A stretch of 64,000 nucleotides of DNA from an archaeon (GCA_020057405.1 JAGVFW010000008.1:3218-67217); one strand, 5' to 3'; positions 12,001-39,488 are shown, numbered from the stretch's first letter. The notes: a model not told the origin generated them from the sequence alone. Numbers and translations: made by a program.

Positions 12001-14702
12001 TTCGGCAAGTGTTTGACCTGTCGCTTGCCTCAATCGGCCTTTCCTTGGGCGGCCTTCTCGGCTCTTTCTTCTCCGGCGGCACTTCACTCTCTGTGACAGC
12101 AGTTGGCGTGGCAATCGGAAAAGGAGCCGGCCAGTCAATCGGCGCTTGCGCGAGCCTTGGCGCTTCAGTCGCGGCTGGTACGGTTGTCACTTCAGGCGTG
12201 GGCTCGCAGACAGTTTGCGAAGCGTTCAACGCCTGCGTTTACGGCCAAATATTCTCGCTAATGACTGGATTCGGCGGAAGCAAGACTCCACCCGCATCGC
12301 CTTCGGGCTTCACAGCAGGAGTGGCGCAAACTGGAAGCGCGTTTAAGGGCGGCTTCGGCACGGCATGGAAGGAACTTACTGGCTTTGGCCTTGGAAGCAA
12401 GGCGGTTGCAGCGCGCTTCGTCCCCGGCATGGTCGTCGGCGGCATGGTTGGCTTGGGCGGCGACGGAACGCAAAACCTGCTGCCCTCATACTACCTCGGC
12501 AAAGAAAAAGCAAGTCAAATAAGACAAAGCGCGGTGCCGGATTCACAGCAATTAATTAAAGCGCTGCGTGATGAAGGCGTGCCCGCATCAGGCGCGATAC
12601 CACCAACAATGGTAACGGATGCGCAAGCAAGAGCTATTTTCAATAAATACGATGAACTGGTTAACGGAAGGGCAGCAACGGCAACTGCGACCGCAGTTGC
12701 TCCAAGATTCCCGGCAGGCGGGGCGCAAGCCTGGAAGGAAGCAACGCTCGACGTGTTTGGTACGGGTTTTGTGAGTACAGTAACGTTAGACAAGATAGCC
12801 CTCGCGGGTTCCAAGACGCCGTTTGGCGCGCAAACCAACGCTTACGTCAAGGCAGTTGAAGAGGCGCTCAAGAAGGCAGGCACTACTGAAGGAAAGACCG
12901 CCAAAGTTATCTTAGGCAAGTGGGGCCCAAGCATCAGGGTTCCCGGAAAAGAGCTTACTGACGGAGTTGAGGCGCTGGCTCAGAAAGTCGCGGAGAAAAT
13001 CAAGGAAGGAAAAGCGGAAGACATTGCAGTCACGGAAGCGCTTAACGAACTCAGAATGGGCCTAGACGACTCGGCAGTCATAGAATCCCTTGACGATGCA
13101 GGAAAGAAGTCTCTCGAAAGCAAAGCAACAAGTGCGGCAACTTCACTCGAAGAAGCGAAAACCGCGGCTACAGGCATCAGGTCGCTGACGCAAGAACACA
13201 ACTTCGAGGATGAGTTTAACCGCATAAAGAGAGCCTCAACAGCAGCTGAACTTCAAGGCATAGAAGATAATCTAAAGGGGCTAAGCACGAGCGGTACATC
13301 ATCTACCTATCGAACCAAGCTTATGAATTACATCGGCGACCGCAAGGTAGCGTTGGAAGGTAAACCGATTTCAGAAGCTAAAATTGCGGCTGAAAGTGCT
13401 AGATTTGAGACTAGGGTCAACCTATATCGCGGTTCGGGCGGAACATCTGAAATCCAAAGCGAAATATCTAGAACAATTAGAAGAATCGAGGGATTGTCCA
13501 GTTCTGGTGATGCGGCAACACTTGAAGGAAGCATTCGAGCCGACATCGATTCTTTTGTTTCCCGACTTAAAGGCGCTAATAATAAAGCGGCGTCAGCCGC
13601 TGAGAAAGCCGCCACCAAGGTCACGCTTGAAAACGTGCTTGATGACCTAATTCTAGTCAAAAAAGATGTTCTCGCTAACCAGGACGGATTTAGAACTGCA
13701 CAAGCAGGATTGGAAACAAAGGCAAACGCTGCAGAAGGAACGGCCGAAACCGCAACAAGAGGCAAAACTAGTGTGAGACTGCCTGCAGCAACGATTGACG
13801 TTACAAAAGTTGACGAGCTCGTTACTCGAATTGGGACTGCAACTGACGCCGAGCTAATCCAAATTGAAACCGAGCTTCGGACAACGAAACTTTCAGCCGT
13901 AAGCGATGCTCAAAGAAAAGTTACTAAGGCAATCACTGACAGGCGAGCATATCTTACAACCAAGGCGGGCTTGGTTGGCACAAGCGAGTTTAAGACTTCA
14001 TTCCTGAAGCGGTTGTTCGGCGCGGGCAAGAGCGAGGCAGACGTAATCAGCGTTGTGAAGAAAGTCAAGGCGCCGACTGCCTGGCGCGCGGCACTTGGAC
14101 AGAACTTCAAGGAGTTGTTCCTCAAGAAGCTTCCAACGGGCTTGCTCAGGCTATTCTTGACGCTATTGTTCCACGTTGACGTCGCGCCCGTGCAGGCGGC
14201 GCTCCAGTCGCACACTAACTCGATTGTGGCGACGAACTTTGAGTATGTGACGCGCGCGGGCACCAACTACATTCCATCTATACACCGATACTGTGATGCG
14301 ACTACGACAGGGTGCGACAAGGAAGTCGTGCTTGACGGGAATGGCGACTGCAGTCCACAGCAGGGATTTGCAGCCTGCGGCGGGTTCAGGGAAAAGACCG
14401 GCGGCGGTTACGCAGCGGCGTTCGTGGTTAACGACAGGGTCGAATCAAATAATGGCGGCCAGATAAACCAGAAGAGCGAAACGCCGGCTGGCACTATCGA
14501 CCTCGGACAAGTTGATGACGACACTGGCAAGATTAAGGCCGAAGCCGCTAGCAAGGAAGAACAGAAGGCGCAGGAGTCGGTTGGACCGCAGTCAAAGAGC
14601 CTGATGTCATCAGTATTCAACCCCGCCCAACCGCCATTAGGCAAGGGCTTCGGATTGATTGGCAACCTGGAAAAGAGGAGTGATGAAACAAATGGCGGCT
14701 AA
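1..14702 (+). CDS. Giant membrane-anchored surface protein, 5'-truncated by the window edge (>4,884 aa)
   Basis: One uninterrupted frame. The frame is still open from nt 3 to the TTG at 48 (SVVVSERVSDGNGKE...), so the true N-terminus lies upstream. It contains ~85-aa beta-sandwich modules resembling carboxypeptidase-regulatory/Big Ig-like domains (e.g. RLRVHVSNFDSADASGASVALF..TTGPDGVQYFDDVP). These are followed by a ~1,900-aa divergent repeat array, T/P/Q-rich linkers, Cys-rich modules, a Gly-rich hydrophobic block, a long A/E/K helical segment and a late TM helix (LLRLFLTLLFHV). Stop TAA at 14700-14702. Confidence 0.85.
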   Translation, partial: SVVVSERVSDGNGKELFTGKTGEDGSISPQDAVLGTLITAKVTAAGYSPKVSDAVTIVAETAITIEIRSLTGPQKLTVSLVDGDGKLVANGLLRLYARQPDGAMAVVDEKKPFKETVDFELEQNREYALSAYATGFLPQFFQKLEPGGKSITLVQATPAKSARLRVHVSNFDSADASGASVALFSADRLPLGLSEKTTGPDGVQYFDDVPLTKVIAMAASQGRFGESPVTVSSGNSSVEVLLPRGNGRVLLTVKDKFSLKPVKGAAVRVSAFEERACTTDDKGQCAVEATEFAGARAIASGAGYETLSTAQFDVRPGVDTKVEALLFPTSVTASTKLEFNGFYDTSGNKVTTLSPASVYRAKFTLRSPPIDYSQARAFVSVGELTATLEGSPVTITAYDAAGAQRVYTGTDFQLARQLNSAGDNTTFDAAAAASVPNAKEYKWVDFVFDKFSGGREISVTITTKASPSAKSALNYRTEFYTTDGVLRSPADAEAGKSKSELLAATDSAPIDLSFQGTCQDDLCVQAFLETLDGTRAQTGFQTPLGREFYLKFKAASFGTPFEAQLLTSGVAVGLLRGTSGGAETSPKPAPDGTLAVRMPASGGEGTFTLRGQRVSSDAYVKLTLYRGDAVAFEKTLFLRVNAEGTPTLSIIANPRTLVALAATPVVITVRDSLGVPVTGARVSLGGVGNDALGRIDEATEDVTLPGTYRIESVTAESAGVIAYAVDAAGFAIARGTISVNAHNLISVGETSLAVEVTAKGQETRTPITVTNLLDNEISVSLSVTRDGIPNLLDIGAEPSQAARMPSRGVLNAYLRAAIADYVLGLAAQGDTIKDSISGRVRVIGKLGAVRQAVEVPFTAKATLVRTAISDAWGIDASALNIELSPPDVAEKTVEVQVRNTGPHPLLINQQVNGLKGVFVNPPSQQVSPGATTAMQILARVSGASSSNQCVFDATTTKGTIRFFATFQGISSNKDLPVTLSLTAKGVCRPTAEQLLTMPIATRFELPADAKVRKNDDGSTTVQMSDGRRVRFSAGATVATTAVTVPPETEFYAEGTAATTATDGFKFTPPVGLILVLPAGVPVISRGDSSAAIIGTTQVLFPSTLAFSQDAGGRAVRVPPGTIVQITALPQVSLESNTLAILPAKIVFDFSRNAIVRENDDGSFSVESAGNAIGFSAQSQHAPQGSDGSVQVTVPSGTGVLFPTAVFSGRANNGFELRVPASLSIEIPSDVEVATRGTTIAAFLPDYDLLLPAGTTFKASAGGKTAAVGPNAIVSFKSVTGISLTGNAFANLPFALRLVLPGGARLDGSEVGKTATLASGETIGLPPDATVSDAQLDGTRVTTVPPYSQVSLPKSFFTPVTGGGFNLKPAVPYALGFPIGTRQVEAGNDLLMLLPDYDLRVPKNTRLAPDSGLLFTTQMAAGTQTRAAPAPEISVADLGRVTLPFDLTATLPAAARVNERSDGIAVLVRDGLTIGFSAPAELSHDNGSTINAPAGAAVLLPAYLIESTPDGSLRLTLPIDVSLSFDTGVQLQRGPAGNSFVSDDYKLDAGSATRVDVSKAGVLRAIVPAGTALTLTSTANAIAAGDEVSIPAQLSLQLPVDAIVRARADGRLYVEARGMRALFGAGATADAGKITVPENTQVIFSRGIVGQLRNAGLAQGRDFKLTIPIAYALAFPAGAGAPVATKRGTTAIAFRGLVIEFPPTAQSSSGDSGTLVSMTGGSATNFITWINGIPASELGGIIDAADAALTPRERLALAAKDNIAVTLPFQLELLVPPSFSMTTADDTGSGPAVWLSSRVAIAFGPTSQVAGSVPKTITAPAGTQLSLPASMLSRSPDGGYAITIPFSTAVLIPEDTEVVNDKQTYALLSNARQELALPAGTAFIQVQDLLRADLQPNTRIEVNPIGAAQLDGLVPVRLPVDAELLFASGVRAFTSGASTVVRLPDGSTAQFPGTIDAQTGPGGVRVLQWTGGTAAMLPRAAVTSDANGGTQFSLPIAANVILPPDARVVQRSGLVAVLAAQRAQITLPTSAKPASDKRGFIASVPAGGRISVSTFGLDVIGQPIVVPFEMHVNVPADAIVDENAPGGVVVEFSANSRAKFSGGVFTSPTGLGTGASLYGLQYGNGFFGSQLSPYGAGWQQNQNQFAQQVRLNLLTVPAFSQVTLAPSLMRPLGYSQGGLAGASAYEFSLPVMWTAIPQSTGAIYNNPDRSYSIFVQNNEIVFPAGTQSSPLSQFGGGLGAQQLIVPAFAPVRVLPVFNGASPFERRPLPFEMAMQLPQGARVLPRGQDGTRTIDFGGGRRMVLDRDLFVDERSVSGPTPPQLSELVITQGTLVGFSPGIYRPLPPQFANPMETASLPQNLWGFALQLPAAIKIRVPSDTRFAKNADGSQSAFVQNFEIRVPAGTSQPLTENGQNGVRTLAVAPNAQVLVVPLALSDSFERIELAVPFDVTFALSADARVLPKAADGSWAIEVPGRGSIAFRPESELAANKVNVPAGSGFFASRELAKADKSVDEFGTRATAFTFTAPMSMSIKSDTQPQGTGASRSLTSGTVELVLPAGVQSSKLGNAYVTIVSAGSQLVLRPIDASFGQNLQDIFLPGEAAFSLPTDAKAFGTSPAGEMPVKFASGQGIVFKGGSRVEGDGATRKVIVPNGASLAPSYALLKTASTTVRQQIQRTQTVPQGWRFATPSQLTVTLPAATRVETGDNGFLVQGQYESYLLPRNAQQSLGKDKALVFTLAPGMVIEYTPVDFNTGGLTEFVFPIAAALTLPLRTLEFADPGTSKVYYSLPSGEKVVLAAPAKKNAAGELVAQVEAGQVIFVPRGWKTDAPNGVVLKYGSRWSFAVPSGTKAEENGGEYLIRVPSTASPTERAGVYLPFPPAFSKNGVESGGRELKNPFALAAQATKASAGQKADGQSFVIVPAGTSVRFEATEKTAADVAGGPTGTLEITLDFDGAIQAADESTVNDKGGSVDVMNTACGNLQVDDTVFPKPGKRIVHTKTVQFQITNARADAESKRISFKAGAKLTIIACRQSEPEWRQVRLFFPVQTTFILPNDAPPLEGSGKVDFGACKEIRTSADVKMKPPRAEVIDFGSVPSPVKSSDKRGQQPDSLPTFTVPADYGILFTICKGDTKFNINTQGLAKAPVPNSIEVQVDGGASKDELHLVLDDGNRKANARIKMRNSGATVIEVNLDSTEADDKIKAAYNNEGEIWWGRTGGIGEGWVWETGYEKKAPVFRLSPTDDFRNVVSTDISLPRSSEFVNPLTGCVEKEAVIEGTLTFKGSLVTDKRPTQSNPLKVKIEIKKNPGACAAAQSLERVLRSGFYATHTAEIKVGDSFATPGKTLYFKTPDASHVQYFALINNLQEKATLSSKWTGTQVTDCSILKAGELVPIDALVMEKGEALVIKCTPKAGVTIPDGGDSGKQRLEIKATPKGTGSDTATQTTQSPVTTVTPTPTPNAAGQTQVQPTAPTAGGSSFFNTDEETKANTIRAVPVDTVAVIEFDVFNPEPLNKQFYLDAGTPLGSLCPFGQNAIDSSCNAALTTPANNFGSGASTGTQNGGTQANGGTNGQQNTQPTTPELGKCDGETAKVPIGTCYNEAHKADATKAGYVCTDAGNGRADYQMAPAQGKATKATNNVDLTRCCPAGGVNLNPSNDGKGCQNENTNPDNTVKAAAVSRINFQSAPSGTTGVSGATVTAPETTTGGSAAPTADTKDATAVNSVYYSLCEEFYCSSDQAQMAFKSHVMGYREIIDEARKESAGTTPDDKTQEVKVLNKLRERFKLGSTTSGFARAFVIQKAGDDKVTNAQIQKAALDAFPATTWHPKNVGVDGELGACGIYIVQTTFRFGPSAFSAASKAETALAESEITINIVKAADCPKNLANAPILMGPPVEKDGLTNTEIWTGRRVVKWPTDVDRITLLFDIGGRWAELQKETGGGVVGTALSVLSYPSVLALGPYGEEYNLKDAVIAKEAYRQMFGVEPAKVLAHKGVSYNDAGYCFQNGIRQVFDLSLASIGLSLGGLLGSFFSGGTSLSVTAVGVAIGKGAGQSIGACASLGASVAAGTVVTSGVGSQTVCEAFNACVYGQIFSLMTGFGGSKTPPASPSGFTAGVAQTGSAFKGGFGTAWKELTGFGLGSKAVAARFVPGMVVGGMVGLGGDGTQNLLPSYYLGKEKASQIRQSAVPDSQQLIKALRDEGVPASGAIPPTMVTDAQARAIFNKYDELVNGRAATATATAVAPRFPAGGAQAWKEATLDVFGTGFVSTVTLDKIALAGSKTPFGAQTNAYVKAVEEALKKAGTTEGKTAKVILGKWGPSIRVPGKELTDGVEALAQKVAEKIKEGKAEDIAVTEALNELRMGLDDSAVIESLDDAGKKSLESKATSAATSLEEAKTAATGIRSLTQEHNFEDEFNRIKRASTAAELQGIEDNLKGLSTSGTSSTYRTKLMNYIGDRKVALEGKPISEAKIAAESARFETRVNLYRGSGGTSEIQSEISRTIRRIEGLSSSGDAATLEGSIRADIDSFVSRLKGANNKAASAAEKAATKVTLENVLDDLILVKKDVLANQDGFRTAQAGLETKANAAEGTAETATRGKTSVRLPAATIDVTKVDELVTRIGTATDAELIQIETELRTTKLSAVSDAQRKVTKAITDRRAYLTTKAGLVGTSEFKTSFLKRLFGAGKSEADVISVVKKVKAPTAWRAALGQNFKELFLKKLPTGLLRLFLTLLFHVDVAPVQAALQSHTNSIVATNFEYVTRAGTNYIPSIHRYCDATTTGCDKEVVLDGNGDCSPQQGFAACGGFREKTGGGYAAAFVVNDRVESNNGGQINQKSETPAGTIDLGQVDDDTGKIKAEAASKEEQKAQESVGPQSKSLMSSVFNPAQPPLGKGFGLIGNLEKRSDETNGG
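2991..8800 (+). repeat. Protein-level tandem repeat array inside the giant ORF (~12 bipartite units of ~160 aa)
   Basis: Two sub-motifs alternate. Type A is 'F.L.LP.DA.V....DG....V....G....F..GA........VP.GT.V.F' (e.g. FELPADAKVRKNDDGSTTVQMSDGRRVRFSAGATV..VTVPPETEF; LQLPVDAIVRARADGRLYVEARGMRALFGAGAT..ITVPENTQVIF). Type B is 'F.L..P......P.....V...G...A.L.....L.LPAGT.F' (e.g. FELRVPASLSIEIPSDVEVATRGTTIAAFLPDYDLLLPAGTTFK). The repeats are too diverged to appear as DNA repeats. Boundaries are approximate. Confidence 0.6.
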
Positions 14703-22951: not shown

Positions 22952-25369
22952 ATGAAGGCGTTCCTGCTTGAAGTCGAGCCCTCCGCACGCAGGGGCCAAA
23001 GCGGGGTACGACTTTTCCTAAAGACGCCGGGCGGAAAGAGCGTGGCCGCTTTTGCGCCCTTCGAACCATATTTTTACCTAGTGCCAAACGGAGACATTTC
23101 GCAGGCCGCAGTGCAAATAATGGCCGTGAAGGCCCTGTCGCGAAACGAGATGATCGGCGTAAAGCGGACCGAGGAAATCGAGCGCAACGCATTTGGCAAC
23201 GCGACAAAGATGCTAAAAGTGTTCACGCACGCCCCCGGCCACGTGCCTGCCTTGCGGGAAGAGTGCAAAGCCTTCGGGCAGTCATACGAGCACACCATCC
23301 TCTTTACTAGGCGCTTTGTCATCGACTCTGGCCTGGTGCCGGGAGCGCTTGCCGAATTCGAGCTGGACGAGCACAAAACAGTTAAGTCGTGGAAGAACTT
23401 GCCCCCCGAGGAGGCGTTCGCGACGATGCCGCCACTGCGCACGCTGACTTTTGACATCGAGACGCACAACCCGGGCGGCATTTCGCGGCCAGAGAAGGAC
23501 CCGATTTTGATGGTGAGCTACTCTGCCGACGACGGCGAGGGCGTCATTACTTATGCGAAAAGCGCGGTTGGAAAGAAGTTCGTCAAGCTTGTCAAGGGAG
23601 AAAAGGAAATGCTTGAGGCATTCGTCGCGCTTGTGAAAGAGAAGAAGGCCGACCTCATCTGCGGCTACAATTCCGACGAGTTCGACTTGCCTTACATGAT
23701 GGAGCGCGCAAGCAAGCTGCGCACCGACTTCAACATCGGCCGCGGGAAGAAAGGCCGCGTCACGCTCAAGAAGCTCGGCCTGCGCAGGCGCGCCCGCGTT
23801 GCCGGCCGCATCCACTTCGACGCGTTCTCGCCAGCGTCATTCATGGACTTTACTGGCACAGTCAAGTTCCCACGCCTGACTTTGGGCGCAGTCTACGAGA
23901 CGCTGTCGGGCGACAAGAAGATTGACACCGACAAGACCGCGATTTGGAAGGCATGGGACGCTGGTGGCGAAGCGCTTGCACACCTCTTTGACTACTCGCT
24001 TGCCGACTCGCGGGCCTGCCGCAAAGTGATGGAGTTCGAGCTGCCGCTTGAGATTGCAATGGGCCGCGTCACGCGCATGACGCTCTTTGACGTCAGCAGA
24101 ACCACGCCAGGGCAGATGGTGGAATCGCTTTTAATGCGCCGCGCGTTTGAGCGCGGGGAAATCGTGCCAAACAAGCCCGACTACTCTACCGTCCAGGCGA
24201 GGCTTGACGACCAAATCCAGGGCGCCTATGTCAAGGTCCCGATGCCCGGAGTTTACGAGAACATTGCGGTCTTCGACTTCCGCTCGCTTTACCCGAGCAT
24301 CATCACTTCGCACAACATCGACCCGTTTACGCTAAACTGCAGCTGCTGCGGGGATGACGCGTTTGTCGCCCCGACGGGCAGCAAGTTCTGCGTGAAGAAG
24401 AAGGGCATCGTGCCGGAAACTCTTGAGAAAGTGCTTGACGAGCGCACTAGCCTCAAAGCCAAGCTCAAGAAGCTCGAGAAGGGCAGCACTGAATACAAGC
24501 TTACCGACGCGCACCAGTGGGCGCTCAAAATCTTGGCAAACAGCACTTACGGCTATCTAGTCTACAGCCGGTCGCGCTATTATTCACGCGAGTGCGGCGA
24601 GGCGATTACCGCCTTGGCGCGAAAGTACATCCAGGATACCATGGCTGACGCCGAGAAAGCTGGCTTTGAGGTGCTCTACGGTGATACTGATTCGTGCTTT
24701 TTACTCCTCGGGAGCCAGAAACGCGAGGACGCTGAGGCGTTCCGGCACGAGGTCAACAAGAAGTTGCCTGGCCGGATGGAATTGGAACTGGAGGACATTT
24801 ACCCGCGCGGGATTTTTGTGAGCAAGAAGCAGGGGGAGAAGGGGGCGAAGAAGAAGTACGCCCTCATTAACGCTGCCGGCGCCATCAAGATCCGCGGCTT
24901 TGAGCTCGTGCGGCGCGACTGGAGCCTGGTTGCGCGCAACACGCAGAGAAAAGTGCTTGAAATACTGCTCAAGGAAGGCGATTTGCCAAAGGCAAAAGAC
25001 CTCGTGCGGGGAGTTCTCGAAGACTTGCGGGGAGGGAAAATGCCGCTTAAGGACCTTGCCATCACAACGCAGTTGCGAAAGAGCGCGGGCAGTTATGATA
25101 TCATGTCACCAGAGCTAAGCGCGGTGCAAAAAGCGAAGGCCGCGGGCGTGAGGGTTGAGGAGCACGCGCTAATCGAATACATCATAACCAAGCAGGGCAA
25201 GACAATCAGCGAAAAAGCCCAGCTCCTAGAGCTTGCGAAAGACTATGACGCGGACTACTACGTCAACAACCAGTTAATGCCCGCGGTGCTAAAGATATTG
25301 GGCGCACTCGGGGTTGACGGGGAAGACATCAAGACGAAAAGCTCGCAAAAGTCGCTTGGCGACTGGTAA
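22952..25369 (+). CDS. polB: Family B DNA polymerase (archaeal PolB)
   Basis: Exo I FDIETHN, Exo II YNSDEFDLPY, Exo III YSLADS. Pol motif A DFRSLYPSII, motif B KILANSTYGY, motif C YGDTDS. The motifs are contiguous, with no intein. Confidence 0.95.
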   Translation: MKAFLLEVEPSARRGQSGVRLFLKTPGGKSVAAFAPFEPYFYLVPNGDISQAAVQIMAVKALSRNEMIGVKRTEEIERNAFGNATKMLKVFTHAPGHVPALREECKAFGQSYEHTILFTRRFVIDSGLVPGALAEFELDEHKTVKSWKNLPPEEAFATMPPLRTLTFDIETHNPGGISRPEKDPILMVSYSADDGEGVITYAKSAVGKKFVKLVKGEKEMLEAFVALVKEKKADLICGYNSDEFDLPYMMERASKLRTDFNIGRGKKGRVTLKKLGLRRRARVAGRIHFDAFSPASFMDFTGTVKFPRLTLGAVYETLSGDKKIDTDKTAIWKAWDAGGEALAHLFDYSLADSRACRKVMEFELPLEIAMGRVTRMTLFDVSRTTPGQMVESLLMRRAFERGEIVPNKPDYSTVQARLDDQIQGAYVKVPMPGVYENIAVFDFRSLYPSIITSHNIDPFTLNCSCCGDDAFVAPTGSKFCVKKKGIVPETLEKVLDERTSLKAKLKKLEKGSTEYKLTDAHQWALKILANSTYGYLVYSRSRYYSRECGEAITALARKYIQDTMADAEKAGFEVLYGDTDSCFLLLGSQKREDAEAFRHEVNKKLPGRMELELEDIYPRGIFVSKKQGEKGAKKKYALINAAGAIKIRGFELVRRDWSLVARNTQRKVLEILLKEGDLPKAKDLVRGVLEDLRGGKMPLKDLAITTQLRKSAGSYDIMSPELSAVQKAKAAGVRVEEHALIEYIITKQGKTISEKAQLLELAKDYDADYYVNNQLMPAVLKILGALGVDGEDIKTKSSQKSLGDW

Positions 25370-31366: not shown

Positions 31367-32284
31367 ATGCGGATTGGATTTGTCGGACTGCGGCGCATGG
31401 GCGCAAACATCGTGCTAAATGCCCTAGACCGTGGCGTGGCGGTTGTGGCCTACAACCGCACGGGCGAAGTAACGAGAGAGTTCGCTAGGGAAGCGAAAAG
31501 CAGGAACTTAACCCCCGCTTACTCGCTCTCGCAAATGTGCGCCGCGCTGCCTTCACCGCGCGTCATCTGGCTCATGGTGACCGCCGGTCCAGCCGTTGAC
31601 GAAATCATCAAGGAGCTTCTGCCAAACCTTAAGGCCGGCGACACGATAATCGACGGCGGCAACTCATTCTTCAAGGACTCCGTCCACCGAAACAAATTCC
31701 TCAAGGCGAGAGGCATCCATTACCTTGACTGCGGCACTAGCGGCGGGCTCGAGGGCGCGCGAAACGGTGCGTGCCTCATGGTAGGCGGTGACAAGCGGGT
31801 TTTCGACAAGCTCGAACCGCTCTTTTCAAAAATCGCGACCAGCCACGGCTACATGTACTGCGGCCCCTCAGGCGCAGGCCACTACACGAAGATGGTGCAC
31901 AACGGCATCGAATACGGCCTCTTGCAGGCGTTCGGTGAAGGGTACGAACTACTTGAAAAGTCGCCTTACAGCATTGACTTGGAAAAGACTTCACGCGTAT
32001 GGAGCCACGGGAGCGTCGTTCGCGGGTGGATGACCGAACTGGCCGAGCGGGCTTTTGGAAAAGACGCGCACTTGAAGAAAATCAGGGGCGTGATTGGCGG
32101 CGGGGAGACCGGCGGCTGGACTCTAAAGACGGCAAAAGAGAGGAAAGCCGAGATGCCCGTGCTTGAGGCGTCGCTTGCGATGCGCAAGCGGTCGGCGAAG
32201 AAGGAAGTTTTTGCTGGAAAAGTCATCGCTGCCTTGCGAAACGAGTTCGGCGGGCACGCGGTTGTCAAGGCGAAGAAAAAATGA
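31367..32284 (+). CDS. gnd: 6-phosphogluconate dehydrogenase (decarboxylating), short ~300-aa form
   Basis: MRIGFVGLRRMGANI Rossmann motif, DGGNSFFKDS, LDCGTSGGLEGA, GPSGAGHYTKMVHNGIEYG. TTG 31352 is an alternative start. Confidence 0.8.
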   Translation: MRIGFVGLRRMGANIVLNALDRGVAVVAYNRTGEVTREFAREAKSRNLTPAYSLSQMCAALPSPRVIWLMVTAGPAVDEIIKELLPNLKAGDTIIDGGNSFFKDSVHRNKFLKARGIHYLDCGTSGGLEGARNGACLMVGGDKRVFDKLEPLFSKIATSHGYMYCGPSGAGHYTKMVHNGIEYGLLQAFGEGYELLEKSPYSIDLEKTSRVWSHGSVVRGWMTELAERAFGKDAHLKKIRGVIGGGETGGWTLKTAKERKAEMPVLEASLAMRKRSAKKEVFAGKVIAALRNEFGGHAVVKAKKK

Positions 32285-32297
32285 GTCGTGCAAAAAA

Positions 32298-32936
32298 ATG
32301 AAAGTCAAGAAAATCATCGACATTTCCCTGCCCATCAGCGGCTCGATGCTCGTCTATCCGGGTAACGCGGCGCCCAAGCTCGAGTTCACGCGCAAAATCC
32401 CGGGAAAAAGCATCCTCTCGGCAATCACTCTGGGCAGCCACACTGGCACGCACGTTGACGCGCGAATGCACGTGAGGCACGGCGCGGTAAAGGAAACTAT
32501 CGAGAAAATCCCGCTCGAGGCGTTTGTTGGCGAGTGCCGAGTGCTTGACTTGACTAAAGTAAAGGGAAACGCGATTGGCGAACGGCACCTGCGCAAGTTC
32601 AAGCTGAAGAAAAACAAAATCATTTTGCTCAAGACCAAGAACTCCTTGCGCGGGTTCAAGAAATTTACGTTTGACTACGTTTATGTCGACGAGAGTGCGG
32701 CCGCTTACTGCGCAAAAGCAGGCATCCGCACGATTGGCGTTGACTACTTAAGCGTGCAGAAGCCGAATTCCGGCAATTACCGAGTGCACGAGCTATTGCT
32801 TGACAACAAAATCACTATTTTTGAGGGCCTGAATCTTGCGAAGGCCAAGGGCGGGAAATACTTTTTCGCGGGCCTGCCGCTCAACGTCGTTGGCGCCGAG
32901 GGCGCCCCGGCAAGATGCGTCTTGCTGGAAGTCTAG
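32298..32936 (+). CDS. Cyclase-family protein (arylformamidase/kynurenine formamidase-like)
   Basis: The HTGTHVDA motif and overall length fit the putative-cyclase family. Start assigned to ATG 32298 (MKVKKIIDISLP..), because the longer ORF-track start lies inside gnd. Confidence 0.75.
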   Translation: MKVKKIIDISLPISGSMLVYPGNAAPKLEFTRKIPGKSILSAITLGSHTGTHVDARMHVRHGAVKETIEKIPLEAFVGECRVLDLTKVKGNAIGERHLRKFKLKKNKIILLKTKNSLRGFKKFTFDYVYVDESAAAYCAKAGIRTIGVDYLSVQKPNSGNYRVHELLLDNKITIFEGLNLAKAKGGKYFFAGLPLNVVGAEGAPARCVLLEV

Positions 32937-35008
32937 CGGTGGATGCGGCCGTTGGCGATTGAAACGAGCCTATCTTGGAAGGCGGGGTTGAAAAGGTGGC
33001 CGCGCGCCTGGGACATGAGTCTTTCCTTGGCAGCGTAGAAGTTCGAGTAGTGGCTCATGTGATCGTGGTTGGGAATGGACTTGTCGCTGTGCGCGTACTC
33101 GTGCACCACTAGTTCGGTAAGTGCGTTTAGGTGTTCGTGGGTGAAGCGGCCTGCCTTGATGTCGGTGAGGGTGCGCCTGATGAGCGGGTCGCGGAGGTTG
33201 AGTGCCACCCAAGAAGAGGCGAGTGGCAAATGGGCTGAGCCGAGATTGTGCGCTGATTCCTTTCCGCCAAGCACGAGCCCAACGCCAATGTTTTGGGCGT
33301 CACTGTGTGCCGCAAGCTCGCGCGAAATCTCCGAAGCAACTCGGACTAGCCTAGCGCGCGGGTGGTTCGAACCAAAAGCCTGGCGAACGGCGTTTTCTGC
33401 CTGGAATAGCGGGTATGAAACTTGGGAGGAGAGCTGGGTTGCAAAGCCGCCAACCGCTTTTGCAGCTTCCCTCAAGCGCCCTTCGTCTTCCTCTTTTTGC
33501 TCGGGCTTTAGCAATTCGGCGTAGTCGGCGTGCACGTTGAGGCCTTCCTCGAGCTCTTCTGACTCAAGTGATTTTGATAGGAACAAGCGACCTGCCCCGA
33601 ATTCTCGTCGCGCGGTGTTGAGGCTGATTTTCGTTTTCTGTTGCTTTCCGTTCTCTACGCTCACTGCCGGAATGACTTTCTTGTTGGCAATCGAAGGTGT
33701 GAAAAGCCCGCCAAGCGAGAATCCGAGCCTTCGTTTGGTGACTGACACGCCCTTCTTTTCACGCGAGGCGAGCCTTTTGGCAATAGTGTTTTTGATGCCG
33801 TACACAACCGGTATTGCGCTAATCGCGCCTAGGGCATAAGCGCCATACTGTACGCCGTGCTCTGCAATGTCGGGCAGGTTGAGCTTGCTTGCGCCGTAGG
33901 CAAGCGCGGCTGCAGCTGCAACCTTTGCCGTCCTCCCGCCTAGCTTCTTCCAGTCGAACCTTGCCGACTGCAATAGTGCGAGCTCGCGCGGCGTCAGCGT
34001 TTCGCTTTTAAGAAGCAAATTCAGGTAGTTTTTCCTAAGCTTTGGCAGTTTGGCCATGACTGCCTCGTGGACTTCCTGTGGCACAGTGTCGCGCCCGCGG
34101 GTTAGGAGCACTTCAGTCGGAAGTTCGGCAACAAATTTGATGCCATTCGTCGGTTTCTCCCCCTGCACACTGGTAATTGCCAGGCCCGATTGAGTGAAGT
34201 TCAGCTCGCCTGACTGTGTGTGGTGGTAGGCTTGGGCAAAAATGTTTATTGGCCCGATAGGCGTGGCAACCGGTCCAAGCTGCGCGTAACCTTCGCGCGA
34301 GTTCAGCACCGCTTGCTTGCTTTTATACTTGCTCACAATCTGGTACTGCGTTGGGTCGACGAAATTCGCATAGTCTATGATGCTGTAGGTTGGAGCATAG
34401 TTGATCCGGATTCCGCGCGCCTCGACCGAAGTGCCCTGCAGGGGCTTTTTCAGCTTGGAGAATTCTGCAAAATACTCGCCGCCTTCCTTGAAGATACGCA
34501 CGGCATTGTCGCGGGAATTCACTACGACTTCTTTAGAAATTCCTGCAATTGCCTTGAATCCCTGGCCGTGGCCGCCAACGCTGCCCTTCACCTTGCTTGT
34601 TGCGCCAACGGTCAGCAAGTAGCGGATGATTCCCTCGGTGTCTAGCCCGCCCGCTTTATCACTTAGTACGAAGTTGCGCGTGCCGTCCCGGTTTTCTTTC
34701 TGTTCCACCTCGATAATTCCCGGGCCCTCCAATTCCCCGCGTTGTCGCATTGCCAAGTATGCATCCATCGAGTTTTGCACCAACTCCTGAAACGAACGGG
34801 CGCCCTGTGAATGCTGGAGCTCTGCTGCCTGGAGGAATTCCTTTTCCGCAAGAGCCTCGTCAACCTTTTGAGCTGCCGAGTGGATTAGCTCGTCCGCCTT
34901 TTGCTGCGAGCCTCTGCGGATTGCCTCGACAAGCCCATCCATCATCGGGCTTTGTCGGCCTTTGGCGTGGAAATACGACAGATACTTCACGGGTACTCTT
35001 ACGGCCAT
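32933..35008 (-). CDS. GHKL (Hsp90/sacsin-like) ATPase-domain protein with a C-terminal HExxH motif
   Basis: N-box FQELVQNSMDA, G1-like SDKAGGL, G2-like GGHGQGFKA. Central hydrophobic segments (AAAAALAYGASKL, YALGAISAIPVVYGI). C-terminal LVVHEYAHSD...HDHMSH. ATG 35008 lies 7 nt after the upstream stop. TTG 35029 (ORF track) would give a 14-nt overlap. Confidence 0.75.
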   Translation of the reverse strand: MAVRVPVKYLSYFHAKGRQSPMMDGLVEAIRRGSQQKADELIHSAAQKVDEALAEKEFLQAAELQHSQGARSFQELVQNSMDAYLAMRQRGELEGPGIIEVEQKENRDGTRNFVLSDKAGGLDTEGIIRYLLTVGATSKVKGSVGGHGQGFKAIAGISKEVVVNSRDNAVRIFKEGGEYFAEFSKLKKPLQGTSVEARGIRINYAPTYSIIDYANFVDPTQYQIVSKYKSKQAVLNSREGYAQLGPVATPIGPINIFAQAYHHTQSGELNFTQSGLAITSVQGEKPTNGIKFVAELPTEVLLTRGRDTVPQEVHEAVMAKLPKLRKNYLNLLLKSETLTPRELALLQSARFDWKKLGGRTAKVAAAAALAYGASKLNLPDIAEHGVQYGAYALGAISAIPVVYGIKNTIAKRLASREKKGVSVTKRRLGFSLGGLFTPSIANKKVIPAVSVENGKQQKTKISLNTARREFGAGRLFLSKSLESEELEEGLNVHADYAELLKPEQKEEDEGRLREAAKAVGGFATQLSSQVSYPLFQAENAVRQAFGSNHPRARLVRVASEISRELAAHSDAQNIGVGLVLGGKESAHNLGSAHLPLASSWVALNLRDPLIRRTLTDIKAGRFTHEHLNALTELVVHEYAHSDKSIPNHDHMSHYSNFYAAKERLMSQARGHLFNPAFQDRLVSIANGRIHR

Positions 35009-35015
35009 AGTCAAT

Positions 35016-36737
35016 TCATCTCTCAACAAGCTTGAAAATCAATTTTTGTTCCGCAGCGTCGTGACCGTAAAGTGCAATGGCAAGACAACGCTTGGCCCAA
35101 GCGCGGTCCTGCTGGGTAGCGCCCGTGAGTGCAGGGTGGTTGACGTTGACATAAAGGCCAGGCGCGACTGTCTTTTCAGCAGCAGAAGATACCTCCGATT
35201 TCTGAACAAAAAGAAATGGCGAATGATTCTGTGGCGACAAGCTTACTCGATGCACGATTAGCTCCTCTTCAGATTCGTCCTCTGGCTCTTCTTCAAAACC
35301 CATGGCTTTTTTCTCGGCGGCTGGCAGCTTGGAGAAAGGAAATGGCTTTGATGCCCGCCTTTCCTCAAGAAATGCGCCTAAATGGACGGCCGCCTTGTTT
35401 TCAAGCGTTCCAGAATTGAACGGCGAGAAGAATTGGTGGTACGCGCCTTCGCCGTAGAAATTCGCGTCGGCGGTTATGAAGTGAGTTGCATCCAAGTGTC
35501 TTTCGTCGCTTACTACGAGTCGCTTTTGAGGGTCAAGTTTGGGCTCATAAGGCTTTCGAAGGCCATTGGCGTATTCAATGATTTTATCCGTTTTCGCAAG
35601 TGCGCCAAAAGATTGCTTGTATTTGAAGCCAAGTTGGGTAAATCCGCCAAGCATCGCGCGCTTGAAGTCCTTAAAGTCGAGCGCCGCGCGTCCAGTCTTC
35701 CGTTCCCCTTCCATTTCCTGCACGTAATCCCATAACTTTGAGAAGACTATCGCTTCTGCCTGCTTCAGTTCGGGCGTTTCGCGAAAGTCGCGTCGGTTTT
35801 CCCCAACTTGGAATGAGGCGGGCATGTGCACGACTGTTCGGAACGGTTTCGCGCCGTAATTGTAAGGCATCTTGTTAAGCAAAATGCCGCCCGAAGTGAT
35901 TGGCAAGTACCGGCCAGTATTCATCCGCGAGCCGAAGTCGAGGTCAACTACTATCTTCTCGTCGCCAAACGGGATTTCGTACTTTCGAGCGTAACGCGAT
36001 AGCCTAGGCGGACGGTTGAGTTGCCTGCCGTTAAGCTCGATTACAGCGTGCTTTGGGCTCACGTGCTGCAGGTATTCGGATAGCTCTCGTGAAATTTCCT
36101 TAACCTGCCTCTTTGACAGTTCTCCGCTGATTTCGACGCGCGTTCCCGGAGCTGCAGAAGTCTTCTCGAATGCTGCCATGACGTCGTTGCCGGTTGGAGA
36201 GTTATCCGATGGCTTGAGGCTGAATTCAGCTGCAGTCGCGTGGCCGCCTGAGTTGCTCTCCACCCGCACTGCACGGGCGGTGCCAGATGTGAGAAATGAG
36301 AGATTTGAAAGAAAGCCAAGGCCGAAACGGCCAATTTGCTTTGAGGCTACGCCCGTCTCAGCCCTTGCTTTTCCGGAGTAGTACGGCACCGACAGGTTCT
36401 GCATCATCGAGTCAAGCGTCATGCCCCCGCCGTTATCCCTAACGACAACGCCGTTTCTGCCAACTGTGATGCTCACCTTGCCCCCGCCTTTCTCGCGCGT
36501 CGCGTCAACAGCGTTTGAAGCGAGCTCGACAACAGAGCGCGGGAGCTCAAACTGGCTGTTGACAAGGTCAAGAAACTTTCCGCGCACGAAGTGCTCGTCA
36601 AAAGACACTTGGTGGGAAGGCACTTCGCCGCTTCCGTGCACCGCCTTGACAACGCTCTTTCTTAGCTCGGCAAAATGCGCCTTGTCATACTGGGCAATGC
36701 CGAAAAGGCGGTGAGCCGGGATTTCGAAACGAGCCAC
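35016..36737 (-). CDS. GHKL (Hsp90/sacsin-like) ATPase-domain protein
   Basis: N-box VVELASNAVDA, G1 RDNGGGM, G2 IGRFGLGFLS. The order and spacing match Hsp90 (ELISNASDA / DNGIGM / IGQFGVGFYS). The C-terminal ~350 aa are unrecognised and include an acidic tract (EEEPEDESEEE). Confidence 0.8.
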   Translation of the reverse strand: MARFEIPAHRLFGIAQYDKAHFAELRKSVVKAVHGSGEVPSHQVSFDEHFVRGKFLDLVNSQFELPRSVVELASNAVDATREKGGGKVSITVGRNGVVVRDNGGGMTLDSMMQNLSVPYYSGKARAETGVASKQIGRFGLGFLSNLSFLTSGTARAVRVESNSGGHATAAEFSLKPSDNSPTGNDVMAAFEKTSAAPGTRVEISGELSKRQVKEISRELSEYLQHVSPKHAVIELNGRQLNRPPRLSRYARKYEIPFGDEKIVVDLDFGSRMNTGRYLPITSGGILLNKMPYNYGAKPFRTVVHMPASFQVGENRRDFRETPELKQAEAIVFSKLWDYVQEMEGERKTGRAALDFKDFKRAMLGGFTQLGFKYKQSFGALAKTDKIIEYANGLRKPYEPKLDPQKRLVVSDERHLDATHFITADANFYGEGAYHQFFSPFNSGTLENKAAVHLGAFLEERRASKPFPFSKLPAAEKKAMGFEEEPEDESEEELIVHRVSLSPQNHSPFLFVQKSEVSSAAEKTVAPGLYVNVNHPALTGATQQDRAWAKRCLAIALYGHDAAEQKLIFKLVER

Positions 36738-36776
36738 GCTAGAATTCCGCCGAGGAGATTAAAAAAGAGCTTGCCG

Positions 36777-37931
36777 CTATCGGCCCAGCTTCTTGCGCCA
36801 GTCGCTTATTGGAATGTTGTAGGCATAGTCTGCAAACATGTAGGTCTTGCCGAAGTTGGCAAAAACCTCTTCGGGAATGTTTGAGTTTCGGATGTCCTGC
36901 ACGGCTTTCCACTGGCCCGCGTCCTTGAGCTTTTTCAAGGATTGCTTGAGCCGCGTGAGGTAAAGCCTCGCGTCGTCCGAGCCTGCAGTGCGGATGTCAT
37001 CATCAATCCGCACGAAAGAAGGGTCGTCGCCGTAGCGCGAAGCGGCGTGGACGACGACCAAAGGGTGGTAATTCAAGGGCTTTGCTGCCTTTTCGACCGG
37101 AATGAAAGCGTCTACCGGAATTTTCTTCGAGCCGTACATTCCCTGCAGGTAGTGCAGGAACATCCAAATGTTGTAGTGATCGAACTTGTGCTCAACGCGA
37201 TACCACTCTGAACCGGCTATCGCGTCCTTGAAATTCGCAATCGCTTCCGATTTCACGCGCGTTTCGGTTTTTCGCACAGCAACGGCAGTCCGGCCGGATT
37301 CGCCACTCTTGATTGAACTTACGTACGAGCTCAAGCCCAAATAACCGGCTACTGCTGCTAAGGCAATGCCTCCAGCTGCGGATAACCGCTTTGTGCGAGC
37401 CGCGGCTAGTCGTTGGCGAGAAGCGGCCTCTTCGGGACTTAACCGCTCGGCGTTCGGCTTGACTATGCTGAACTCGTTCCGGGATGCCGTTTTCAAGTAA
37501 TTGGCAGTTGCCTTTGGAGCGACAACCAGGTGCACTACCTGCGTGTTGCCCTCCATCTCGAGTCTTTTGAGCAAAACTGGTTCCTTCATCCTTAGGACAG
37601 CAAGTTCCTTGGAGTCCCGCAGCACATTACCCCAGTGGCGTGACAGGCCGGCATCGTCGTAAACGTCTGCATCGCCTTGGCGAATCTTGACAGCCGCAAC
37701 GCGCATCCGCATCTCCTTTGCCTGAAGCTGATTTAACGCCTTGATGCGCTCAGCGCTAAATCCCTTGAGTCTGGAAGTCTCAAGTCGTCTTGCCTCAGTC
37801 GTCCGGTCATTCGTAACATCACTTGGAATCAACGCATTAACAGAAGTCTCGTGGAGCTTGTGTGCTTTAGGATTCAGACGCTCAACTAGAGCACCAGCGA
37901 ATACCTTTGCTCCGGCGTAAACGGCTTTCAC
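36777..37931 (-). CDS. Hypothetical protein with a central TM helix (first gene of the GHKL cassette)
   Basis: 384 aa: a helical N-terminal half, the TM helix GGIALAAVAGYLGLSSYV, and an unrecognised C-terminal domain. A CCTTATTAATCG element lies about 25 nt upstream. Confidence 0.65.
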   Translation of the reverse strand: MKAVYAGAKVFAGALVERLNPKAHKLHETSVNALIPSDVTNDRTTEARRLETSRLKGFSAERIKALNQLQAKEMRMRVAAVKIRQGDADVYDDAGLSRHWGNVLRDSKELAVLRMKEPVLLKRLEMEGNTQVVHLVVAPKATANYLKTASRNEFSIVKPNAERLSPEEAASRQRLAAARTKRLSAAGGIALAAVAGYLGLSSYVSSIKSGESGRTAVAVRKTETRVKSEAIANFKDAIAGSEWYRVEHKFDHYNIWMFLHYLQGMYGSKKIPVDAFIPVEKAAKPLNYHPLVVVHAASRYGDDPSFVRIDDDIRTAGSDDARLYLTRLKQSLKKLKDAGQWKAVQDIRNSNIPEEVFANFGKTYMFADYAYNIPISDWRKKLGR

Positions 37932-38049: not shown

Positions 38050-38655
38050 ATGTTCGAGTTACCTAAATTGCCTTATGCATACAACGCCCTTGAACCATTC
38101 ATCGACGAGTTGACTATGACTATTCACCACACCAAGCACCACGCAGCTTACGTTGACAACGCGAACAAGGCGCTTTCGGGAACGCCGTTTGGGGGCGCGC
38201 CAGTTGCCGATGTGGTAATGTCCCTCGATAGCGTTCCAGACGCGGTTAGGACCGCTGTTCGAAACAACGCTGGCGGGCACCTTAACCACTCGCTCTTCTG
38301 GCAGATGATGGGCCCCGGAAAGGGCGGCTCCCCGGGCGGCGAGCTTGAAGAAGCGATTTCAAAGAAGTTCGGCGGCTTTGACAAGTTCACTGAGCAGATG
38401 AATGCCGCTGGCGTCGGAAGATTTGGTTCGGGGTGGGCTTGGCTGGTTTTGAACAAAGGCGAATTGGAAATAATGTCAACACCAAACCAGGACAACCCGA
38501 TTACCGAAGGTAAGCAGCCGATTCTGGGAATCGACGTGTGGGAGCATAGTTATTACCTCAAGTGGAAATCCAATCGAGCCGAATATCTCAAAAATTGGTG
38601 GAATGTAGCGAATTGGGATTTTATGAAAGAGACCTATGTAAGGCTGATTGGCTGA
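38050..38655 (+). CDS. sod: Fe/Mn superoxide dismutase
   Basis: [27 protein letters not shown] and DVWEHSYYL metal-ligand motifs. 201 aa. Confidence 0.95.
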
Positions 38656-39488
38656 GTTGACTTTTTTAAATTCAGCCAATTTTCAACAAAACTCGCTTTT
38701 TCCGGCTTAAGTTTGGTGGTCGGTATGCTTTCCAAGAATCGACGCACAAAATCTTTTTTATATATTCTTAGATGATAGGACTCTTTTCTGGGCGACCCGT
38801 CTTTAGACATGTACGCCTTTTGAATAGAATATTTCGCGTCGATATCGAGATGTTCCTTGAGCAGAATACGGACTAATTCTAGATATGAATAATTCGTGTT
38901 GCAAAGGTCAGGACATATTTTCGGAGTTTTCCTGACTTTTTCTTTGATGATTTTTATGCACCCTTCCGCATCAAAAAAGCCCCCTATGAACTCAAGAGAA
39001 TTTGCTCTAAAGTCTCCATCGGCCATAAGCAACTTTAGTTTCTCTAGGTCGCGTCTGATTTCTTTAAACAAGAAAAACAATTCGGCATTTCCAACGACAA
39101 CAAACCAGACGTGCCTGCTGCGATTGATGTAACCTTTTACTTTCCTTCCAATGCATACCGATAGCTTCTGGGCGTATTTGTCGATGAACTCTTTTTCTCC
39201 AACCACGCCTACAATATGCCGGTCTGTTTTCCAAGAATATACGTAACCATCACCGAGCAAAGCACCCAGTACATAGAAAAGTTCCTTGCAGAATCTTATT
39301 CTCCTCTTTCTAAAGGGAGAACTGCTTCCTAAAATCCAGCAATAAACCGTGCCTGAAGGAATTCCGTACGTCTCACTAATTAGTCGCACTATCTGGACTC
39401 GTTCAACGCCTTTTGCCTGCAGTTCTTCTAAATGTCGAAACGCTTTCACTCTGACCGCCGAGGGTATTCTGTTCATCATCTCACGCAA
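38634..39488 (-). CDS. Free-standing double-motif LAGLIDADG homing-endonuclease-like protein with an N-terminal HTH
   Basis: Motif 1 [11 protein letters not shown] and motif 2 [13 protein letters not shown] lie about 95 aa apart, as in single-chain LAGLIDADG enzymes. N-terminal helix-turn-helix-like [19 protein letters not shown]. Hand-counted GC is 35-42% in two 60-nt lines, against 60% in a polB line. Its 3' end overlaps the sod 3' end by 22 nt. Confidence 0.8.

Follow-up and report, generated by a model that had tools for sequence, protein, structure and literature searches.

The stretch of DNA analysed here, called the window below, comprises 64,000 nucleotides (nt) of GCA_020057405.1 (JAGVFW010000008.1:3218-67217), and the host genome is that of a small archaeon of DPANN type. 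Between positions 32933 and 37931, three genes follow one another on the minus strand. Gene 1 (g1, 36777-37931, minus strand) is an open reading frame (ORF) of 384 amino acids (aa), or 309 aa in the public gene call. Gene 2 (g2, 35016-36737, minus strand) encodes the small Hsp90-like subunit, a protein of 573 aa with an N-terminal Bergerat ATPase domain, a middle domain and a C-terminal domain. Gene 3 (g3, 32933-35029, minus strand) encodes the large Hsp90-like subunit, of 698 aa from a TTG codon or 691 aa from the ATG at 35008; the latter start fits better with the homologues. Depending on the start, g2 and g3 are separated by a 7-nt gap (ATG) or overlap by 14 nt (TTG), and a CTAG at 32933-32936 contains the stop codons of both g3 and a convergent cyclase gene. 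This layout had been described in an original prediction made from the sequence alone, together with the GHKL motifs of g2 and g3 and a HEYAH motif near the end of g3, and all these features were verified in the sequence. The subject of the present analysis is the g2-g3 pair, for which we see about an even chance that it encodes a Hsp90-like ATPase, divergent and heterodimeric, that works with a metalloprotease.

Two Hsp90-like ATPases encoded as a pair

The g2 protein passed the Pfam cut-offs of two ATPase profiles, HATPase_c_3 (32.4 bits, cut-off 25) and HATPase_c (28.9 bits, cut-off 26.4), and its ATP-binding domain covers approximately residues 1-205 (36123-36737, minus strand). The motif positions of this domain, E71, N75 and D78 (ELASNAVDA), D101 (DNGGGM) and G136-G141 (GRFGLGF), were invariant or nearly so across 40 family members, and they lined up with ELISNASDA, DNGVGM and IGQFGVGF of Escherichia coli HtpG. 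Comparing the g2 family with this HtpG by hhalign gave a probability of 98% (E 1.9e-13). The AlphaFold2 model of g2, built with the 40 family members in the alignment, had a predicted local distance difference test score (pLDDT) of 87.9 and a predicted template modelling score of 0.85. When it was searched against the PDB with Foldseek, full-length TRAP1, Hsp90, GRP94 and HtpG were retrieved (best E 1.2e-18, approximately 640 columns aligned), and the best 50 matches were all Hsp90-family chaperones, spanning the N-terminal, middle and C-terminal domains.

In the middle domain of g2, a loop with the sequence E313-N-R315 (35793-35801, minus strand, translation checked) stands before a long helix (residues 322-343), as the LNxSRE loop does in Hsp90. 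E313 and R315 were invariant in the 40 sequences. R315 is a candidate catalytic arginine and may be the equivalent of R380 of Hsp90. At the C-terminus of g2, the segment LYVNxNHPxF (residues ~527-536; window 35016-35120) was nearly invariant in the g2-family proteins, with N531 and H534 present in at least 90% of the 40 sequences.

For g3, the HATPase_c_3 score was just under the cut-off (22.8 bits for a cut-off of 25), and an orthologue from Woesearchaeota (locus L007) scored 29.3 bits. The corresponding motifs read ELVQNSMDA, SDKAGGL and GGHGQGFKA. Residues E82, N86, D89, D124, G152/G155/G157 and R313, the last one in the segment LLTRGR and confirmed by translation, were invariant in 13 archaeal and bacterial orthologues. 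The AlphaFold2 model, obtained with 13 sequences, had a pLDDT of 71.7, and its confident part consists of the ATPase and middle domains (residues 1-355; 33965-35029, minus strand). Foldseek again placed HtpG, TRAP1 and Hsp90 first (E 2.6e-13); the best 50 PDB matches were also of the Hsp90 family, and no MutL, MORC or Topo VI-B structure was among them. The hhalign comparison of the g3 family with E. coli HtpG gave a probability of 97.7% (E 1.8e-12).

When the two family profiles were aligned with each other, a probability of 99.9% was found (E 2e-32, 290 columns), and both contain a middle-domain loop of the form P-x6-8-(E/R)-G-R-D before the long helix. Judged from these profiles, g2 and g3 are clearly paralogues, through the ATPase and middle domains. 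Pfam, hhalign and Foldseek agree with the earlier proposal of two divergent paralogous GHKL ATPases of Hsp90/sacsin type; the MORC-type module with an S5 fold also proposed gave way to a Hsp90-like fold over the N-terminal, middle and C-terminal domains. Since the catalytic Glu, the Mg-binding Asn, the adenine-binding Asp, the G2/lid glycines and the loop Arg are kept in both proteins, both subunits look catalytically competent and are predicted to hydrolyse ATP.

Between its middle and C-terminal domains, g3 has an Ala/Gly-rich hydrophobic linker (residues 358-445; 33695-33958, minus strand), which was modelled as low-confidence helices and varies in length and sequence among orthologues. Two hydrophobic segments had been announced for g3, a description that proved too strong: the Kyte-Doolittle value of the linker is below 1.5, under the usual transmembrane threshold, and the model is of low confidence here. 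Values of up to 2.0 were reached in the Woesearchaeota orthologue of locus L007, whose insert is clearly transmembrane-like. The linker of g3 may form a membrane hairpin.

To find relatives of the pair, 1.84 billion cluster representatives were scanned with g2 by HMMER (E up to 1e-3), and 174 proteins were found. Besides the query, about 78 of the 149 listed matches were 490-640 aa long, most of them matching through residue 320-350, and about 55 of the 150 best were proteins of 1400-4800 aa with this type of ATPase domain. The named members of the g2 family are 'ATP-binding proteins' of Micrarchaeota and Woesearchaeota. The full HMMER scan was needed to find the family, as a word-indexed search of 5.8 billion proteins with g2 returned the query only. 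With g3, the indexed search gave four relatives only, at 28-33% identity, one of them from a Candidatus Micrarchaeota genome. A contig scan with the g2 family alignment yielded one true member (L011) among 80 loci, the rest being generic bacterial GHKL proteins with an IGRFGVGF motif, and a metagenome scan with the g3 alignment yielded 7 true pair loci, plus about 11 loci whose protein, about 500 aa long, belongs to another Hsp90-like family.

The context of the pair was read in loci L001-L011, L091-L093, L096, L103, L108, L109, L115 and L116. In all of the ~15 loci examined, a g2-like gene (509-631 aa) was directly followed by a g3-like gene (646-831 aa). The stop of g2 and the start of g3 overlapped by 1-7 nt in 12 of the 14 related loci; the two others had a 1-nt gap (L007) and an overlap of about 20 nt at the longest ORF start (L011). 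The sources of the pairs are Micrarchaeota, Woesearchaeota and a Polyangium bacterium, in which the g3 orthologue is annotated (Polyangium sp., HMY20264.1, locus L109); another pair sits among bacterial-type signalling genes on a contig of 34% GC. The family therefore extends outside archaea. Hidden Markov models (HMMs) of the two paralogues told g2 from g3 in all loci, archaeal and bacterial, which means that the two had already diverged by duplication before the module spread. From their arrangement, g2 and g3 appear to form an obligatorily co-occurring, translationally coupled pair, and because the pairing is obligatory, a heterodimer is a reasonable inference.

Some of these loci have features of their own. 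In Candidatus Micrarchaeota (L002, GCA_016212375.1, positions 6764-8895), the g3 orthologue comes as two overlapping ORFs of 516 and 206 aa; the split may be genuine, or be due to a frameshift or an error of assembly. In Polyangium sp. (L109; 1606-3012, minus strand, and 7-1542, plus strand), the pair is accompanied by a divergent upstream gene having a weak match to a von Willebrand factor A (vWA) domain (E 5e-4), a gene of the prolyl-oligopeptidase family (S9) farther upstream and a V4R-domain gene downstream. The other family of about 500 aa (L097-L102, L104-L107, L111) is also a Hsp90-like GHKL protein, and scored about 70 bits on the g2 and g3 HMMs alike. Its flanks are occupied, in several loci (e.g. 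L100-L102, L104, L107), by giant ORFs of 990-1650 aa that overlap. Small and giant genes may here form a GHKL system of their own, akin to the 1400-4800 aa proteins found by HMMER.

A HExxH motif, fused or next door

The C-terminal part of g3 (residues 543-698; 32936-33403, minus strand) is a SprT/WLM-like domain with a zincin motif. The putative metal-binding and catalytic motif, HEYAH-x12-H-xxx-F, lies at 33038-33103 (minus strand) and translates to HEYAHSDKSIPNHDHMSHYSNF, HEYAH itself being residues 643-647 (33089-33103). The four closest relatives of g3 have AEASQ, IEALS or IESAS instead of HEYAH, and a first reading of these four sequences was that the motif had arisen by chance; it was overturned by the distant orthologues. 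In the alignment, L007 has HEYAH (residue 642, same column), L093 and L108 have HEKAH, and the Polyangium protein (L109) has HEKTH. In each of the five motif-bearing orthologues, HExxH is followed, 10-13 residues on, by H-x3-F. These five C-terminal regions, of Micrarchaeota-like, Woesearchaeota and Polyangium origin, are approximately 20% identical, and their only invariant columns are N611, L637, H643, E644, H647, H660 and F664 (g3 numbering). The pattern HExxH-x10-13-H-xxx-F was present in no other ORF of the fetched loci (560 ORFs).

The model of this domain contains three strands followed by helices. N611 is at the end of a strand, HEYAH at the end of the helix 631-648, and H660 and F664 open the next helix. 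The layout known from SprT and WLM proteins, with a strand ending in N, a HExxH helix and a downstream His and aromatic residue, is present in g3, and it matches that of E. coli SprT: IRLN, 17 residues, HELAH, 12 residues, HGKEW, the first spacing being 17-31 residues in the comparison. The zincin motif announced for g3 is thereby confirmed as a set of residues, HExxH plus the downstream His and aromatic, that is invariant in five very distant orthologues.

The distribution of the motif was then compared with the genes adjoining the pair. Among the five loci with a fused motif, none had an adjoining HExxH gene; in the window, a M50B-like gene was looked for and none was found. Six locus groups (L001/L096, L002, L003, L005/L006, L009 and L115) keep the g3 domain without its H-E-H residues, and in these six the next downstream gene encodes a M50B-like protein of 209-346 aa with HExxH. 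HExxH, GAPN and GD(F/Y) were invariant in five members of this protein, which scored 24.5 bits on Peptidase_M50B (PF13398, cut-off 26) in L002, and less in the others. Two further loci, L011 and L092 (Woesearchaeota), have a motif-less g3 and, upstream, a gene for a HExGH-vWA protein. This protein is 620-644 aa long, its HExGH region being N-terminal and its vWA domain (DxSxS) C-terminal. In both loci, the pair ends a five-gene overlapping operon (L092 1658-9581, L011 193-7788), in the order MoxR-like AAA+, a 266-279 aa gene, the HExGH-vWA protein, g2 and g3. The loss of the fused motif coincided with an adjoining HExxH gene in 8 of the 9 such loci. This fused-or-adjacent pattern is the strongest argument for an ATPase pair working with a metallopeptidase.

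The explanation that we favour is the following. Two ancient, extremely divergent Hsp90-like GHKL paralogues would assemble as a heterodimeric clamp in the manner of Hsp90, and the ATP-driven closure of the clamp would hold or remodel a client polypeptide and pass it to a zinc metallopeptidase. In the window, the large subunit would carry the peptidase itself, as its fused, C-terminal SprT/WLM-like domain. In other lineages, where this domain has lost its catalytic residues, a separate peptidase of the operon, either M50B-like or a zincin-vWA protein, would take its place. The hydrophobic linker of the large subunit may put the machine at the membrane.

Several points weigh against this coupling. 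The matches of the C-terminal domain to Pfam WLM (E 0.054) and SprT-like (E 0.26) were each obtained in one member only and were not significant; a profile search of the PDB, NCBIfam, and hhalign against E. coli SprT all returned no significant match. The zincin assignment of the domain is a putative one, based on the invariance of the motif and on the topology of the model. Furthermore, LYVNxNHPxF of g2 matched VALNLRDPLI, the strand preceding HEYAH in g3, weakly over 15 columns (E 0.029), and since the order of strands and helices is also alike, the C-terminal domain of g3 may be the counterpart of the Hsp90-type C-terminal domain of g2. L091 is the lone exception to the pattern, having a pair with neither a fused nor an adjoining HExxH. 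Finally, we know of no Hsp90 protease fused to its chaperone, and the hand-over step is for this reason an analogy with AAA+ proteases such as FtsH.

These same observations can be read in terms of a plain heterodimeric Hsp90-like chaperone, devoid of proteolysis. The HExxH domain would then descend from the Hsp90 C-terminal domain and serve in dimerisation or regulation, stabilised by a structural metal site, and the adjoining peptidase genes would be coincidental, or encode clients or co-factors. The kinship with the end of g2 would be accounted for, as would the many orthologues that keep the domain, including the invariant N611, in spite of having no HExxH, and the L091 pair, which has no peptidase whatever. 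However, in zincins the Glu of HExxH is catalytic, not structural, and it is invariant here, within a three-part SprT-like layout that is wholly kept. The coincidence of motif loss with an adjoining HExxH gene in 8 of 9 loci is also hard to explain if no peptidase is required. We consider a chaperone without proteolysis unlikely.

The SprT/WLM-like motif also recalls Spartan and Wss1, which are DNA-protein crosslink proteases, and the GHKL pair could be imagined as an ATP-gated DNA clamp, acting in the manner of MORC, MutL or Topo VI-B, that recruits a protease of this type to DNA-protein crosslinks. NCBIfam reported sub-threshold matches of g2 and g3 to Topo VI-B, the sacsin ATP-binding domain, PRK14083, HtpG and MutL; for g2, the match to Topo VI-B was weak (E 3.6e-8) and that to MutL marginal (E 0.01-0.05). 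Two Micrarchaeota loci have a divergent FEN1 gene upstream of the pair, and in both L002 and the window the distance to polB is no more than about 5-10 kb; this FEN1/polB environment is confined to one clade. For both proteins, the best 50 fold matches are of the Hsp90 family, aligned through the middle and C-terminal domains, a Pfam scan detected no DNA-binding domain, the alternative partner is M50B-like, i.e. from a membrane-type peptidase family, and the hydrophobic linker is at odds with a DNA clamp. Such an action on DNA is very unlikely in our opinion.

Gene 1 and the surroundings of the pair

The original prediction had presented the locus as a cassette of three genes. The neighbourhood check upheld the part of this claim that concerns g2 and g3, which co-occur in every related locus, and removed g1 from it. 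Pfam, NCBIfam, PADLOC and PHROG contained no match to g1, g1 itself was all that came out of the word-indexed search of 5.8 billion proteins, and tblastn detected no homologue in any of the related loci. In the closest pair-bearing relatives, L115 and L116, unrelated genes on the opposite strand occupy the upstream position instead of g1. Because g1 has no detectable homologue and is absent from every related locus, the conserved unit is one of two genes, not three, and g1 is an orphan outside of it. The idea that g1 might be a relocated form of the conserved downstream 209-346 aa gene was discarded, as no BLAST or tblastn similarity was found between them.

A three-gene operon, in which the g1 membrane protein would anchor or regulate the GHKL heterodimer, has in its favour the common orientation of all three genes, the short distance of 39 nt between g1 and g2, and a central hydrophobic segment in g1. 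This segment (residues 183-207) is the only one, and it is moderately hydrophobic (Kyte-Doolittle 1.59), so that the central transmembrane helix announced for g1 is retained in this weaker form. Besides the isolation of g1 in databases and in related loci, the g1-g2 spacer contains the element TTTTTTAAT (36758-36766, minus strand, read from the sequence), about 25 nt before the GTG of g2. Its spacing makes it a candidate TATA box of archaeal type, from which g2 and g3 would be transcribed together, and it separates g1 from g2. An operon of three genes is unsupported, because of this element and of the lack of conservation of g1 with the pair, and we find it scarcely credible.

The composition of the locus had been taken as a sign of accessory DNA, with 48-52% GC in sampled lines against about 60% for polB. 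This contrast was overstated: GC contents are 53.8% for g1, 53.4% for g2 and 55.5% for g3, compared to 57.2% for polB (22952-25369) and 56.5% for the window. The neighbours of g2 and g3 are ordinary chromosomal genes, encoding polB, a M24 peptidase, a metallo-beta-lactamase-fold protein, a 6-phosphogluconate-dehydrogenase-like protein, the cyclase, a cation-efflux protein and orotidine monophosphate (OMP) decarboxylase. Two more genes nearby, recognised by eye from their translations and not by a profile, we take to be those of a superoxide dismutase and a methionine sulfoxide reductase. The window polB is 50% identical to that of the Micrarchaeota locus L002, which carries the pair about 5 kb from its own polB. 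The argument for accessory DNA is weak. In Micrarchaeota, FEN1, a cold-shock gene and polB surround the pair, a housekeeping environment that is partly syntenic.

Such surroundings bear on a role in defence or conflict, whereby the GHKL pair would sense an invader or a stress, and an ATP switch would free the metallopeptidase effector, leading to abortive infection or target cleavage. The spread of the pair is rare and patchy, over Micrarchaeota, Woesearchaeota, Polyangium and a low-GC bacterial-type contig (174 of 1.84 billion representatives), and the two Woesearchaeota operons join it to MoxR-like AAA+ and vWA genes, a combination described in conflict systems (PMC7159879). Toxin-antitoxin-type neighbours are present in some loci (Fic, Polbeta nucleotidyltransferase, PIN/DUF3368 with UPF0175), but genes of this type are common everywhere in archaeal genomes. 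The closest PADLOC model was Tiamat TmtA, although PADLOC matches spanned just 70-100 residues of the ATP-binding domain, for profiles of 1300-1650 positions. The best viral structural matches were to phage RIIA, and RIIA are GHKL proteins engaged in phage-host conflict (PMC7824862). Searches of plasmids, phages and viral contigs found no member of the family, tblastn found no copy of g2 in phages, and the scan of viral contigs with the g3 profile gave a single match, confined to the ATPase domain. Together with the metabolic genes around the window pair, its non-deviant GC and the housekeeping context in Micrarchaeota, these results make a defence function possible, but doubtful. If it were one, its protease-effector type would be absent from current catalogues.

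The rest of the region calls for few comments. The only clearly low-GC gene (41.4%) is a free-standing gene of LAGLIDADG type (38634-39488, minus strand; Pfam LAGLIDADG_3, E 1.7e-9), and it shares 22 nt at its 3′ end with the 3′ end of the superoxide-dismutase-like gene (38050-38655), which is convergent to it. For the cyclase gene (32163-32936, plus strand), the longest ORF is 257 aa from a TTG; the true start is probably later, near MKVKK at residue 46, since the Pfam Cyclase match begins only at residue 52. The long version would run into the 3′ end of the 6-phosphogluconate-dehydrogenase-like gene. Upstream from polB, a giant ORF (48-14702, plus strand) encodes 4884 aa, and the Micrarchaeota locus L002 likewise has a giant ORF (>2600 aa) beside its polB.

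Comparison with known systems

The g2 and g3 proteins share with the Hsp90 family (HtpG, TRAP1, cytosolic Hsp90 and GRP94) the Bergerat motifs, which align with HtpG in both, and the architecture in N-terminal, middle and C-terminal domains; they may also share the catalytic Arg, an invariant Arg being present in a middle-domain loop before a long helix. They differ by an identity of 11-16% only, by their occurrence as paired paralogues instead of a homodimer, by an N-terminal extension of about 60 residues and, for the large subunit, by the hydrophobic insert and the zincin-motif domain. No match of g2 or g3 to Pfam HSP90 was found at E up to 1, and NCBIfam HtpG (PRK05218) gave 21 bits for a cut-off of 371. 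Global TM-scores to Hsp90-family structures were 0.33-0.44 only, and the orientation of domains therefore differs from that of Hsp90. Based on the models, g2 and g3 are Hsp90-like in fold, yet outside the curated Hsp90/HtpG family, and they are not MORC-like. Archaea have been reported to have no HtpG/Hsp90, divergent 'HSP90-like' sequences excepted (PMC1525184). The best curated matches beyond generic ATPase domains were to PRK14083, 'HSP90 family protein' (g2 E 7e-6, g3 E 2e-6), at 25-26 bits for a cut-off of 455, over the ATP-binding domain only and with another architecture. To our knowledge, DPANN lineages are considered to lack Hsp90; if the assignment is true, they would gain an ancient Hsp90-like chaperone system.

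Other GHKL proteins were more remote. On the sacsin profile P_loop_sacsin, g2 scored 32 bits and g3 23 bits, under the cut-off of 50 and over the ATP-binding domain only, the rest of the architecture being different, and one orthologue scored 12 bits on Pfam SACS (cut-off 32.8), so that the sacsin cut-off was not reached. MORC, paraMORC and MutL proteins belong to the same GHKL superfamily, and HATPase_c_3, the profile passed by g2, is also found in paraMORC proteins (PMC8011034). In contrast to these, the region after the ATPase of the window proteins aligns with the Hsp90 middle domain, and none of the 50 best fold matches was to MORC or MutL. Nuclease or restriction-modification partners were seen in none of the loci examined.

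Phage T4 RIIA resembles g3 by its size (~700 aa), its annotation as membrane-associated and the adjoining gene of its partner, and RIIA proteins were the best matches of the g3 model in the viral structure library (E ~1e-9 to 1e-10), a similarity no better than that to Hsp90. This library (BFVD) had been searched for a zincin match to the C-terminal domain; RIIA and further GHKL proteins made up most of the result. The PHROG profiles of RIIA did not match the window proteins, and matched the L007 orthologue weakly (E 3e-4, ATPase region only). Unlike g2, RIIB is not a GHKL paralogue of its partner, and we know of no zincin motif in RIIA. Tiamat TmtA has a sacsin/Hsp90-type ATP-binding domain, matched in PADLOC with E 5e-4 by the window proteins and down to 2e-8 by orthologues, over 70-100 residues; it differs in being a single giant protein, with neither a paired paralogue nor a zincin domain. 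PADLOC returned nothing for g1, the M50B-like protein or the MoxR/vWA partners. In agreement with the original prediction, the module matches no named defence system in PADLOC, where ATPase-domain matches were the only ones.

Regarding the peptidase part, g3 has in common with SprT, Wss1 (WLM) and Spartan the strand ending in N, the HExxH helix, and the His-x3-aromatic 10-13 residues later. Contrary to them, it has no zinc ribbon or DNA-binding module, and its domain is fused to a Hsp90-like ATPase. Both fusion and neighbourhood tie the pair to metallopeptidases, in DPANN archaea with reduced genomes as well as in a myxobacterium. Should this coupling be real, mechanistic studies of asymmetric ATP hydrolysis would have a natural heterodimeric Hsp90 to work on, and some 4 kb of conserved DNA, annotated in very small genomes as 'hypothetical' or simply as 'ATP-binding protein', would be given a role.

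As a functional analogy only, the proposed machine can be compared to FtsH, in which an ATPase is also joined to a HExxH zinc peptidase, possibly at the membrane for the module described here. The two would differ in their ATPase, an AAA+ hexamer in FtsH and a GHKL dimer in the present case, and in their peptidase, that of FtsH being of the unrelated family M41. Every energy-dependent protease that we know of is driven by an AAA+ ATPase, and a real coupling would widen the known ways of powering proteolysis. We put forward, tentatively, that the module may be the first known member of a new class of ATP-dependent proteases, in which a Hsp90-type GHKL heterodimer, in place of the AAA+ ring, would drive client handling for a zinc metallopeptidase, either fused (SprT-like) or encoded by a neighbouring gene (M50B-like or zincin-vWA). 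A published description of the pair, or of its association with peptidases, was not found in the literature searched, the coverage of which was incomplete, and it may be described elsewhere. Set beside the systems compared here, the module looks like an undescribed one, of an ATP-driven chaperone-protease type.

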